Shown in pieces: positions 2,990 through 4,744 of a DNA stretch of 4,925 nucleotides. Location of the stretch: IMG/VR virus record IMGVR_UViG_3300029471_000068, one strand, 5' to 3'. The position numbers were made by a program, and so were the translations under genes. Position 1 is the first letter of the stretch; each line of letters begins with the position of its first letter. A model generated the notes under the pieces. The model worked only from the letters and a program-made list of their open reading frames with translations. It searched no databases and had not been told where the DNA came from. Source of the stretch: a virus. Lineage: Duplodnaviria > Heunggongvirae > Uroviricota > Caudoviricetes.

Positions 2990-3828
2990 TCAGAGTGTCA
3001 ACGGGGNNNNNNNNNNNNNNNNNNNNNNNNNNNNNNNNNNNNNNNNNNNNNNNNNNNNNNNNNNNNNNNNNNNCACCAGTTCGTTAAAGGCGGTCAGCTG
3101 TGCCTGCAGGGCAGTCTCCAGCTCAGACAGGCGTTCTTCCTGCTCAGACAGGGATTTTTCGGTGCGTGCGCTCAGGTTCTGCTGCTCAGTGGCGACCAGC
3201 TCCACGGCCTTATGCACATCAGAGAACCGGGCGTCATCGGACCGCTCTTTTTTGGTAAACAGCGCCGTGACGCGGGCAAACAGGGACGGTTTGTCGTCCT
3301 GGATTTCTTCCAGTTCGATCACCGTTTCCTCTGCAGCGGTAAAGAGATTGGCAGGATTCTGTTTGCGGTTTGCCAGCGGGTTATGGGCTGCACTGGCGCT
3401 GAATGTCAGCATTTCAGTGCCCAGACTGGCGGGATCATCAGTGGCGGCCAGGCCAACCAGGTAGGCTTTGCCCGTATCAGCAAACTTCGGGCTGACTTCC
3501 ATAGAGGTGAATAATTTCTGGCCTTTTTTCACCAGTTCCACCAGGGACTCCGTTGGCTCAACGTCGGCATACAGCGCCATCTTGCCTGCNNNNNNNNNNN
3601 NNNNNNNNNNNNNNNNNNNNNNNNNNNNNNNNNNNNNNNNNNNNNNNNNNNNNNNNNNNNNNNNNNNNNNNNNAGATAAGACTTGATGTGCTCAAGGTTA
3701 ATCAGCGCGGTGTACACCGTCGGGTTGTAGCTGGCTGCCATCTGTTCCAGCCATTCACGCTGGATTTCGCGTCCGTCGGTGGTGGCACCTTCCACCCCGA
3801 TGCGAAAACGCTTTGCTTTCACTGTCAT
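2990..3828 (-). CDS. O: P2-type capsid scaffolding protein gpO; interrupted by two N-gaps (3007-3073, 3590-3673), exact 3' end uncertain
   Basis: N-terminal piece from ATG 3828: MTVKAKRFRIGVEGATTDGREIQREWLEQMAASYNPTVYTALINLEHIKSY. Central piece: ...[39 protein letters not shown]...HNPL...SDDARFSDVHKAVELVATEQQNLSARTEKSL. Both match recalled P2 gpO (FRIGVEGDT-DGR...[57 protein letters not shown]). The two pieces are in different frames across the 84-N gap. The stop at 2990-2992 lies after the 67-N gap, so its frame is unverified. Confidence 0.85.
3007..3073. other. Assembly gap (67 N) inside the 3' part of gpO
   Basis: Run of n within the gpO coding region. Confidence 0.95.
3590..3673. other. 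Assembly gap (84 N) inside the 5' part of gpO
   Basis: Run of n. The flanking gpO segments are in different frames although 84 is a multiple of 3, so the gap length is an estimate. Confidence 0.95.
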
Positions 3829-3970
3829 GAGCCGTGCTCCGTTAGAAAAAACTTACTGGAGCCTTATGGTTGCGGTGATGGGGGCAGTGAAACAATGCGC
3901 GGTATTTGTACCGGCAACCACACAAACCGCAGGCGGGGAAAGCCTTCATTCAAGGTTGTAGGTTTGTGCC
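3829..3970. promoter_or_regulatory. Divergent late-promoter control region between gpO (minus) and gpP (plus)
   Basis: 142-bp non-coding spacer between two divergently oriented morphogenetic genes, which is where P2 places its O and P late promoters. It contains the TGT-N12-ACA dyad listed separately. A CATAAG -10-like hexamer lies on the minus strand about 3863-3868, and GGAG lies 8 nt upstream of the gpO ATG. Confidence 0.55.
3907..3924. promoter_or_regulatory. TGT-N12-ACA dyad: candidate binding site for an Ogr/Delta-family zinc-finger late activator
   Basis: Sequence TGTACCGGCAACCACACA at 3907-3924 fits exactly the TGT-N12-ACA element described for P2/P4 late promoters, normally centred near -55. 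Its centre (about 3915) is roughly 55-60 bp upstream of a plausible minus-strand start site near 3856-3860 for the O-N-M-L operon. Confidence 0.45.
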
Positions 3971-4399
3971 ATGAACACCACACTGACACCCGCAGATCTC
4001 GATCCCCGTCGGCAGGCCATGCTGCTGTACTTTCAGGGATACCGCGTAGCCCGCATTGCTGAAATGCTGGGCGAGAAAGTTGCAACCGTTCACAGCTGGA
4101 AAAAACGCGACAAGTGGGGTGACTATGGGCCGCTGGATCAGATGCAGCTCACCACCGCCGCACGCTACTGCCAGCTCATCATGAAGGAGCACAAAGAAGG
4201 GAAAGATTTCAAAGAGATTGACCTGCTGGCGCGCCAGTCGGAGCGCCACGCGCGGATCGGCAAGTTTAACAATGGCGGCAACGAAGCCGACTTAAACCCT
4301 AACGTCGCCAACCGCAATAAAGGCCCACGCCGTCAGCCGGAAAAGAATGTTTTCACCGATGAGCAGATTGAGAAGCTGGAAGAAATGGAGGAGATTTAG
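3971..4399 (+). CDS. P: P2-type terminase large (ATPase) subunit gpP, N-terminal 142 codons only; truncated by the junction with foreign sequence
   Basis: ORF 3971..4399 (+): MNTTLTPADLDPRRQAMLLYFQGYRVARIAEMLGEKVATVHSWKKRDKWG...DFKEIDLLARQSERHARIGKFNNGGNEADLNPNVANRNKGPRRQPEKNVFTDEQIEKL. This matches the conserved N-terminus of P2-family terminase ATPase subunits (DPRR-A-LLYW-G; KEIDLL-RQ-ERLARV; GGNEADLNP-ANRNKGPRR-PEKN). Full-length homologues are roughly 590 aa; here a stop follows at 4397-4399 and the downstream DNA is unrelated. Confidence 0.85.
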   Translation: MNTTLTPADLDPRRQAMLLYFQGYRVARIAEMLGEKVATVHSWKKRDKWGDYGPLDQMQLTTAARYCQLIMKEHKEGKDFKEIDLLARQSERHARIGKFNNGGNEADLNPNVANRNKGPRRQPEKNVFTDEQIEKLEEMEEI

Positions 4400-4744
4400 A
4401 TGGGAAGAGAATTGTTGAAGATGGCGGATGGGTTTGCTTTGGTTGCGGAGAGCCTGCGGGAGTTGGCGGGACAGGCTGTGGAAGAAGCAAAGGCGGAGAT
4501 GAAGCAGGAGAGCAAAACAGAGAAAGGCACAGCAGATAAGAACACAGCCAGAGTAAAAGTGGATAAGAAAAAAGAGGAACAGAAGGTGGCTGTGGAGGAT
4601 ATCCGTGTGGTTCTGGCGGAGAAGTCACAGGAGGGAAAAACTAAGGAAATTAAGGAACTGCTGGGAAAATACGGGGTGGCAAAGCTGTCTGCCGTGGAGG
4701 AGAAAGATTATCCGGCGCTGCTTGCGGAAGCGAAGGTGCTGTGA
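4400..4744 (+). CDS. Hypothetical K/E-rich 114-aa protein of foreign (Firmicutes-like) origin; function unknown
   Basis: ORF 4400..4744 (+), preceded by GGAGGAG with a 6-nt spacer. Coding strand is strongly purine-rich and uses AGA (Arg), GGA/GGG (Gly) and TTG (Leu), unlike the rest of the window. I do not recognise the protein. Its stop overlaps the next ATG (TGATG at 4742-4746). Confidence 0.5.
   Translation: MGRELLKMADGFALVAESLRELAGQAVEEAKAEMKQESKTEKGTADKNTARVKVDKKKEEQKVAVEDIRVVLAEKSQEGKTKEIKELLGKYGVAKLSAVEEKDYPALLAEAKVL

Follow-up and report, generated by a model that had tools for sequence, protein, structure and literature searches.

A shared late-activator site probably serving both divergent head-gene promoters of a common P2-family prophage

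Genes and dyads of the O/P region

The window, the whole 4,925-bp stretch of viral DNA analysed here, carries the block of head genes of a prophage from the P2 family, Wadgaonvirus/Felsduovirus type. Prophages of this type occur commonly in E. coli, Klebsiella and Salmonella (the SopE-phi/Fels-2 group), and 1191 of 5426 complete E. coli genomes contain a matching region. Position 4386 marks the end of homology to E. coli prophages, and the window beyond that point is an assembly chimera. On the minus strand, open reading frames at 2990–3828, interrupted by N-masked runs, represent gpO, the capsid scaffold gene and the first of the O operon, whose relatives are annotated as GPO family capsid scaffolding proteins. 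On the plus strand lie the N-terminal 138 codons of gpP, the terminase ATPase subunit (3971–4386; Pfam Terminase_5, E = 4.6e-28), cut by the chimeric junction. The complete phage NC_049342 is 98.6% identical to the window over a 717-bp query and 99.3% identical over the intergenic 272 bp.

The N-terminus of gpP aligns with those of P2, 186 and vB_EcoM-813R9, end-to-end in the case of P2 gpP and 186 Orf12, and this alignment, together with an in-frame TAG at 3959–3961 that excludes any start further upstream, places the start at 3971. The ATG at 4020 was rejected as a start: conservation with P2 and 186 already covers residues 11–16 (DPRRQA), and synonymous changes at codon 3 (ACC, ACG, ACA) indicate that the first codons are translated.

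Exact matches to TGT-N12-ACA occur only twice in the window, as TGTACCGGCAACCACACA at 3907–3924 (dyad 1) and TGTGCCATGAACACCACA at 3965–3982 (dyad 2), just where the earlier note had placed them, and the second does overlap the gpP ATG. That the motif resembles the element bound by Ogr/Delta activators agrees with the literature (PMC3931495, PMC3152322): the Ogr/Delta consensus is TGT-N12-ACA (PMC3931495), and the inverted repeats to which Ogr binds have their centre near -55, its action requiring the RNA polymerase alpha subunit (PMC3152322). A pair of matches per 4925 bp is not unusual: 200 shuffled windows held a mean of 0.95 matches, with two or more in 53 of them, and a 39-kb relative holds 10 exact matches, 6 of them outside late-promoter regions, which fits chance density. 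Around one real site, the probability of a second exact match within 214 bp is 0.038–0.045, so the argument that a pair of matches some 75 bp apart is more than chance would give is only marginal (P about 0.04) and is weaker than first claimed. Conservation separates the two dyads more clearly, being far beyond chance for dyad 1 and not for dyad 2.

A conserved, probable activator site between the divergent operons

Dyad 1 is centred at 3915.5 and reads, in its extended form, TTGT-ACCGGCAACCAC-ACAA (3906–3925). We found an exact TGT-N12-ACA dyad in all 50 distinct O/P intergenic sequences of relatives (a set defined by gpP N-termini at least 65% identical) and in all 23 distinct sequences recovered from 80 viral contigs. 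Among the 48 intergenic sequences used for column counts in the clade alignment, the spacer takes 31 different N12 forms and the flanking T3906 is invariant. The half-sites are thus kept while the spacer drifts, a pattern that points to selection on the half-sites. Spacing is fixed on the terminase side, with 55.5 bp separating the dyad centre and the gpP ATG in 49 of the 50 clade sequences, while the distance to the gpO ATG ranges from 81.5 to 110.5 bp.

Position and register of dyad 1 match the annotated sites of two reference phages. In P2 (NC_001895) the Ogr site at 3057–3087, likewise between divergent O and P, is annotated for both promoters, with transcription starts mapped at 3016 (pP) and 3127 (pO). 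The dyads are of one type (TGGCTTATCACTGACACA in P2, TGTACCGGCAACCACACA in the window), both lie 34 bp from a TAGnnT on the P side, and both are centred 55.5 bp from each start, mapped in P2 and predicted in the window. They differ in that dyad 1 is a perfect palindrome whereas the P2 dyad has one degenerate half, the spacers are unrelated, and the intergenic region is 142 bp in the window compared with 173 bp in P2, a difference attributable to the missing 23-nt pP leader with its GAGG Shine-Dalgarno. In 186 (NC_001317), a single protein_bind feature for the B protein at 3798–3817 (TGGACAACCGCCCACACA), between p12 and pV, is stated to activate both promoters. The dyad centre is 87.5 bp from the scaffold ATG in both 186 and the window, though on its terminase side 186 has retained a GAGG Shine-Dalgarno and some 23 nt of leader, and its activator is B rather than Ogr. 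An inverted repeat of a kind that tolerates one degenerate half, at a position homologous to an experimentally defined site, dyad 1 is by its sequence an ordinary conserved late-activator site of the P2 family.

A candidate activator is encoded by NC_049342, in which a 72-aa Ogr_Delta protein (PF04606, E = 9e-21) follows gpD; the activator gene lies outside the window. The protein is 54% identical to P2 Ogr and keeps C4, C7, C30 and C35. The extended motif TTGT-N12-ACAA occurs at only three sites in the 39-kb NC_049342 genome, at O/P, V and FI, with 55.5 bp from the centre of the V site to the V ATG downstream and 85.5 bp from the FI site to the FI ATG. A more distant parallel, in host and lineage, is the Stenotrophomonas phage Smp131, which encodes an Ogr-like CX2CX22CX4C protein and in which a single TGT-N12-ACA-like sequence (4381–4398, both orientations) is assigned to PP'/PO' (PMC3931495); there too one dyad is allotted to two divergent promoters, and there too by prediction.

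Conserved -10-like hexamers stand 34–35 bp from dyad 1 on both sides, as in P2, and predict starts at 3971 (plus strand) and about 3859–3860 (minus strand). On the minus strand, the candidate pO -10 is AACCAT at 3866–3871 (AAnCAT in the clade), one base off the register of GAAACT in P2 pO; at least 90% of clade sequences keep its A3870, A3871 and A3867. It is a weak hexamer and the assignment is tentative, with CATAAG or TAAGGC as alternatives. Eighteen bp upstream of it lies a -35-like TTGTTTC (3889–3895, minus strand; plus-strand GAAACAA), a block with some of the strongest conservation in the intergenic alignment. If the P2 pO start is a guide, transcription would begin within 3856–3863, at about 3859–3860, 55.5–56.5 bp from the dyad centre, in agreement with the view that dyad 1 is well placed for the O operon. 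The resulting leader would be about 32 nt long and carry GGAG, the Shine-Dalgarno of gpO (3837–3840, minus strand), conserved in most clade sequences.

The predicted terminase promoter and the gpP start codon

On the plus strand, the predicted pP -10 is TAGGTT at 3959–3964, a TAnnnT hexamer lying 34 bp past dyad 1 like TAGCCT of P2 pP and 186 p12. T3959, A3960 and T3964 are invariant in 48/48 clade sequences, with TATGTT, TAGTCT, TAATCT, TATTTT and TAGGCT as variants. In the -35 region, GGGAA at 3936–3940 ('Gaaa' columns conserved in the clade alignment) takes the same register as GCGAA in P2 and 186. No TTGACA-like hexamer was found for pP, as expected of an activator-dependent promoter, and a scan of 3780–4030 returned no sigma-70 consensus promoter. 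The same region contains a single terminator-like hairpin (3913–3900, 5 bp), which overlaps the left half of dyad 1 and which we judged meaningless.

Given that one site is annotated as serving both promoters in P2 and 186, and that dyad 1 stands in the same register to the plus-strand TAnnnT, dyad 1 probably serves pP as well, and so both divergent head-gene promoters. The earlier note had seen no clean site for the plus-strand promoter; the single central dyad of P2 and 186 is assigned to both, and dyad 1 sits in the same ungapped register. That note's reading of the region is supported in part, for the motif and for dyad 1 as the O-operon site, and is not supported for the supposed lack of a plus-strand site or for dyad 2 as a pO site.

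The register also bears on translation. From dyad through 34 bp, TAGnnT and 6 bp to +1, it is identical and ungapped in P2 pP, 186 p12 and the window, and in the window it puts +1 on A3971, the first base of the gpP start codon (3971–3973). An invariant CATG would supply C-1 and A+1, with exactly 6 nt separating the predicted -10 from the A in 48/48 sequences. The 55.5 bp from dyad centre to ATG equal the mapped dyad-to-start distance of P2 pP, pO and pV. We found no conserved Shine-Dalgarno before gpP in the clade, the upstream 17 nt being taken up by the -10 and discriminator: AGG precedes the gpP ATG in only 7/48 sequences, whereas GAGG is retained in the P2/186 group and GGAG ahead of gpO. 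Duplex energies with the anti-Shine-Dalgarno were noisy, G-rich promoter sequence scoring spuriously, and were used qualitatively. Together, the P2 pP register and the lack of a conserved Shine-Dalgarno predict that the terminase mRNA is leaderless: this lineage lacks the 23 nt that lead the P2 pP transcript, and transcription would begin on the A of the gpP ATG.

A precedent exists within P2 itself, in which the pV site is centred 55.5 bp upstream of the ATG and the mapped V transcription start at 10308 coincides with the start of the coding sequence at 10308 (NC_001895). Like the gpP of the window, the V ORF begins ATGAAC, and V of NC_049342 shares the pV geometry; unlike gpP, V belongs to a baseplate and tail operon, and the terminase gene of P2 is leadered where a leaderless start is predicted here. 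The gpP mRNA is thus probably leaderless in the manner of P2 gene V. Full-text literature searches returned nothing relevant on leaderless P2-type terminase mRNAs.

Two other accounts of pP deserve consideration. Dyad 1 might serve the O operon alone, with the P promoter using another, unrecognised element or needing no activator. The earlier note found no second dyad upstream of gpP, and a -10-like AAGCCT (3940–3945) followed by AGGT (3960–3963) could yield a leadered gpP mRNA with a Shine-Dalgarno; the AGGT lies within TAGGTT, 7 nt before the ATG, and could act as one if the transcript started further upstream. Against this, both promoters share one annotated site in the P2 and 186 records, the dyad stands as far from the plus-strand TAnnnT as in P2 pP, a distance that is fixed across the clade, AAGCCT and AGG are not conserved (TAGG in 7/48 sequences), and a sigma-70 consensus promoter is absent, so we regard an O-only site as highly improbable. 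We rejected AAGCCT as an alternative pP -10, with AGGT as its Shine-Dalgarno, for lying 15 bp from the dyad and for its lack of conservation; reading the sequence for a degenerate dyad centred at about 3896–3898, as that promoter would need, revealed none. Less remote, though still unlikely, is activation of pP from dyad 1 with a start a few bases off the ATG or elsewhere, giving gpP a short leader. Start-site choice can shift by 1–2 nt, and in other lineages the dyad centre and the ATG are 56.5–57.5 bp apart, with TAGCCT occupying -13 to -8; set against these are the invariant CATG and the -10 ending exactly 6 nt before the A throughout the 48 sequences, and a 1–2 nt leader would still behave as leaderless, with no space for a Shine-Dalgarno.

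The second dyad

Dyad 2, TGT-GCCATGAACACC-ACA, is centred at 3973.5 and covers positions -6 to +12 relative to the start predicted for pP, its centre 2.5 bp downstream of +1; its TGT falls in the pP discriminator (-6 to -4) and its ACA is Thr codon 4. The earlier judgement that it could not act at -55 for pP is borne out by this position over the predicted +1. It is an inverted repeat, extended on the left half only (TTTGT...ACAC), and its centre lies about 113 bp from the predicted pO start rather than near -55. Aligning the O/P region with those of P2 and 186, as had been suggested, yielded a counterpart of dyad 1 in both phages and of dyad 2 in neither. Within the clade, dyad 2 is exact in 9/48 sequences and present as TGK..ACA in 20/48, and relatives sharing 96% identity or more differ in its left half, which reads TGT, TGG or TAT, so that its half-sites are not conserved.

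Could both dyads nevertheless be real, with dyad 2 a lineage-specific element that throttles pP (terminase and portal relative to the O operon) or aids pO from about -113? The match is exact, with a perfect extended left half (TTTGT), and its chance occurrence in the region has a P of only about 0.04. TGT or TGG with ACA is kept in 20/48 clade sequences and in 22/23 distinct close relatives; functional P2 sites have one degenerate half (TGG or CCA), and the P2 site between O and P is itself TGG-N12-ACA. The late promoters of P4 have a second Delta site centred near -18, and its Psid and PLL promoters, reportedly described by Julien and Calendar in 1995 as having two Delta-binding sites, offer a precedent for a second site downstream of the one at -55. 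The P4 site, however, lies near -18 and not over +1, and dyad 2 is not conserved: P2 and 186 are without it, and it is lost (two or more mismatches) in over half of the clade, in which dyad 1 is never lost. The T/G/A polymorphism of its half-site among relatives at least 96% identical, its right half ACAC rather than ACAA, and the ACA being a Thr codon within a Thr-rich N-terminus tell the same way. The V promoter of NC_049342 has the same geometry and no second site, and a Pandoraea relative has a similar ATG-overlapping match by itself. As for pO, the two centres are 58 bp apart, or 5.5 helical turns, which puts them on opposite faces of the DNA; a second upstream pO site at about -113, unconserved and 5.5 turns from dyad 1, finds no support in the comparison with relatives. 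We consider two functional dyads quite improbable and dyad 2 most likely a fortuitous match, no conserved regulatory element, the option of chance having been one of those the earlier note offered (exact in 9/48, absent from P2 and 186).

We therefore think it likely that dyad 1 is a site shared by pO and pP, that the pP mRNA is probably leaderless, and that dyad 2 probably arose by chance. Under this joint reading, a small zinc-finger activator of the Ogr/B type, encoded elsewhere in the prophage, would bind the dyad 1 palindrome and contact the RNA polymerase alpha subunit, activating two back-to-back sigma-70 promoters that both lack good -35 elements. For each promoter the start would be some 55.5 bp away from the centre of the dyad, which is the spacing of P2 and 186. 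While the sequence of the dyad, its homology, its register and its conservation are observed directly, we infer activator binding, start sites and leaderless translation from them.

For a prophage family that is very common, these results indicate where late-promoter control should be annotated, with one palindrome, not two, probably controlling both head operons. They also urge caution in motif scans, as TGT-N12-ACA has only six fixed bases and some 4% of real sites can be expected to have a second match beside them. A very unlikely alternative for the E. coli/Klebsiella sublineage is that dyad 2, lying on the AUG and start point of the leaderless terminase mRNA, is a further target of the activator, which would turn pP on from -55 and limit it from +3; if true, the same protein would set the ratio of terminase and portal to capsid protein. 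On balance we lean towards the view that in a large P2-family clade the terminase mRNA is leaderless and that the activator site, the -10 and the start codon form a single inflexible unit of 55.5 bp. If confirmed, a leaderless terminase mRNA would extend the precedent of P2 gene V to a second late operon and would account for the frozen distance between dyad and ATG.

The window and its two dyads

Exact TGT-N12-ACA matches occur at just two places in the window, dyad 1 at 3907–3924 and dyad 2 at 3965–3982, as an earlier note made from the sequence had placed them. Both lie in a P2-family prophage, in its block of head and lysis genes, where the minus-strand ORFs L, M, N and O (scaffold; O ATG at 3828) diverge from the plus-strand terminase ATPase gene P, of which the window has the start; apparent K, Y and X genes, also on the minus strand, were assigned by gene order alone. 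N-masked runs (1447–1456, 3007–3073 and 3590–3673) hide parts of gpM and gpO, so the ORF calls for both genes are split. The 717 bp surrounding the dyads match an E. coli chromosome at 99.9% identity and have counterparts in 1191 of 5426 complete E. coli genomes, with annotations reading "GPO family capsid scaffolding protein" and "terminase ATPase subunit family protein". Identity is 98–99% in Escherichia phages vB_EcoM-813R9, 500465-1 (Wadgaonvirus) and Cartapus, ~98% in many Klebsiella prophages, and ~92% in Salmonella SopE-phi, RE2010 and SEN8. One GenBank record, ON470620 (L003 3154–3288, equivalent to ~3827–3961 of the window), annotates a 44-aa "hypothetical protein" across the entire O/P intergenic control region, probably a spurious call over promoter DNA.

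Prophage homology ends at 4386, and 4387–4925 matches a phage contig from a gut metagenome (Logan SRR31188261) at 100% identity; that contig has a Clostridia-type phage replication module, ordered as two DUF7768 genes, a 114-aa ORF, a DUF2800/PD-(D/E)XK gene, and ssDNA-binding protein and PolA genes. The foreign segment holds the 114-aa ORF (4400–4744) and the DUF2800/PD-(D/E)XK gene (from 4744), and among phage records it comes closest to Ruminococcus and human-faecal phages (~70% identity). Both sources share a 21–22-mer, GATTGAGAAGCTGGAAGAAAT, at the join (4366–4386), the signature of a k-mer assembly chimera; the window is such a chimera, enterobacterial P2-like prophage up to 4386 and foreign DNA thereafter. 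The join cuts gpP off after residue 138 and is without effect on the dyad finding.

Three observations secure position 3971 as the gpP start: an end-to-end alignment of the N-terminal residues with P2 gpP and 186 Orf12 (MN-TTLTPADLDPRRQ versus MTITTDTTLLHDPRRQ), an in-frame TAG upstream at 3959–3961, and synonymous changes in codon 3 across relatives (ACC, ACG, ACA). The earlier note held that two exact matches within about 75 bp exceed chance expectation. For the window as a whole the count is unremarkable (at least two matches in 53 of 200 shuffles); within the surrounding 214 bp, a second exact match given one real site arose in 3.8–4.5% of shuffles, which is suggestive, not compelling.

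Dyad 1 and the late promoters

Comparison with the P2 and 186 O/P regions, a check raised in the earlier note, identifies dyad 1 as the homologue of the activator site shared by their divergent late promoters, and binding in the window is predicted on that basis. The P2 RefSeq record annotates one "activator binding site; pO, pP promoters" at 3057–3087, and the centre of its dyad, TGGCTTATCACTGACACA, is 55.5 bp from the starts of both pP (3016) and pO (3127); the 186 record lists a single B-protein site at 3798–3817 (TGGACAACCGCCCACACA) "for activation of pV and p12". We aligned P2 pP and the window plus strand without gaps from −75 to +15 and found one shared register; the 186 p12 spacing, counted from sequence, is identical. 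Relative to the predicted pP start, dyad 1 falls at −64 to −47 and a G.GAA block at ~−35 (registers common to P2 pP, 186 p12 and the window), and the −10 hexamer (TAGGTT in the window, 3959–3964; TAGCCT in P2 and 186) at −12 to −7, exactly 34 bp past the dyad, with the predicted +1 six bases beyond the hexamer. On the minus strand, the predicted pO −10, AACCAT (3871 to 3866), is one base off the register of P2 pO GAAACT, and the −35 region holds a strongly conserved TTGTTTC (3895 to 3889). Its plus-strand form, GAAACAA (3889–3895), is among the most conserved intergenic blocks across the clade (relatives with gpP N-termini at least 65% identical to that of the window), and P2 pO lacks a comparable element there. 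A search of the O/P control region for a sigma-70 consensus promoter detected none, as would be expected of late promoters that depend on an activator.

Ogr binds inverted repeats centred at ~−55 and acts via the alpha subunit (PMC3152322); the consensus is TGT-N12-ACA, and in Smp131 a single dyad is assigned to PP' and PO' alike (PMC3931495). The earlier note was right to read the motif as Ogr/Delta-type and to regard dyad 1 as well placed for pO. Its statement that the plus-strand promoter has no clean site was mistaken: dyad 1 occupies the P2 pP register, the P2 and 186 records annotate one site for both promoters, and dyad 1 probably serves pP too. A 5-bp hairpin with a T-rich tail (3900–3913, minus strand), which overlaps the left half of dyad 1, scored as terminator-like and is probably meaningless.

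At 80 genomic loci that encode a relative of the gpP N-terminus, we placed both start codons by tblastn and then scanned for dyads. The exact motif was present in 50 of 50 distinct intergenic sequences from the clade, drawn from Citrobacter, Enterobacter, Klebsiella, Pantoea, Erwinia, Tatumella, Rosenbergiella, Plesiomonas, Xenorhabdus, Photorhabdus, Providencia and others. Its centre was exactly 55.5 bp from the gpP ATG in 49 of them, and its distance to the gpO ATG ranged from 81.5 to 110.5 bp; the exception, Proteus faecis (L048; distance to the gpP ATG 83.5 bp, in an intergenic region of 174 bp), possibly re-acquired a leader independently. Column counts used 48 sequences chosen by having the six dyad bases themselves; among these there were 31 different spacers (major-allele frequency 0.52–0.90 per position), T3906 was invariant and A3925 present in 44, extending the motif to TTGT-N12-ACAA, and pP −10 positions T3959, A3960 and T3964 were invariant. 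A further, independent sample, 80 viral contigs selected by position only, gave 23 distinct sequences, all with an exact dyad 1 despite point changes in the spacer.

NC_049342, a near-identical complete phage relative, encodes a 72-aa Ogr_Delta protein directly past gpD, as in P2 (PF04606 E = 9e-21; 54% identity to P2 Ogr; all four Cys retained). Ten exact TGT-N12-ACA matches occur in this phage, and only three extend to TTGT...ACAA: one at O/P, one whose centre precedes the V ATG by 55.5 bp and one 85.5 bp before the FI ATG, together the positions expected for four late promoters.

Dyad 2 over the gpP start codon

Dyad 2 is most likely fortuitous, and of the options in the earlier note chance is the best reading. 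It has no counterpart at the same position in P2 or 186. Among the 48 clade sequences it is exact in 9, reads TGG...ACA in 11 and is absent from the others (at least two mismatches or an altered right half), with T3965 and T3967 each below 55%; even in relatives at least 96% identical, the left half is polymorphic (TGT in 14 distinct sequences, TGG in 8, TAT in 1). Its TGT forms −6 to −4 of the predicted pP discriminator, and its ACA is Thr codon 4 of the Thr-rich gpP N-terminus. Pandoraea terrigena (L081) has an unrelated exact match, TGTCGGCATGACACAACA, over its own gpP ATG (centre −1.5) with no dyad near −55, illustrating that a TG-rich discriminator and Thr codons favour chance matches there. 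We consider it very improbable that dyad 2 is a functional second activator site in this sublineage, though TTTGT gives it a perfect left half and functional P2 sites tolerate one degenerate half. The two dyad centres are 58 bp (5.5 helical turns) apart, and no second dyad was found at the NC_049342 V promoter, which has the same leaderless geometry.

A predicted leaderless terminase mRNA

P2 pP initiates 55.5 bp from the centre of its dyad and 23 nt upstream of the ATG, and a GAGG SD is present. In the window and its clade, 55.5 bp is the distance from the dyad centre to the gpP ATG itself. In the clade CATG is invariant, TAnnnT ending 6 nt before it, and no conserved SD precedes gpP there (AGG occurs in only 7 of 48 sequences, inside the −10); the P2/186 group keeps GAGG before terminase, and GGAG is kept before gpO. 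Spacing is frozen on the P side and the leader variable on the O side, as expected if all bases from dyad to ATG are promoter. This arrangement, seen in 49 of 50 distinct clade sequences, leads us to predict, as on balance probable, a leaderless terminase mRNA in the window and clade.

P2 V is a precedent for a leaderless late mRNA inside P2: in the record, the V operon TSS (10308) coincides with base 1 of the V CDS, the centre of the activator site being 55.5 bp upstream, and V of NC_049342 has the same geometry. The shared geometry is found at window 3959–3973, L084 16160–16226 and L085 10239–10310, and ATGAAC opens all three ORFs (window gpP, P2 V and NC_049342 V). Dyads lie 56.5–57.5 bp from the ATG in Serratia, Yersinia proxima, Sodalis and Acerihabitans, and in several lineages with short intergenic regions, Brenneria and Pectobacterium among them (neither yielded a dyad with one mismatch or fewer), P2's GTAGCCTTGC directly adjoins the start codon. 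A leaderless or near-leaderless layout therefore seems widespread, the leadered P2/186 layout being the apparent minority in this sample.

A literature search found no report of a leaderless P2-type terminase mRNA. Dyad 1 is a previously uncharacterised example of a well-known kind of regulatory site, and the sole mildly new element is the predicted leaderless terminase mRNA.
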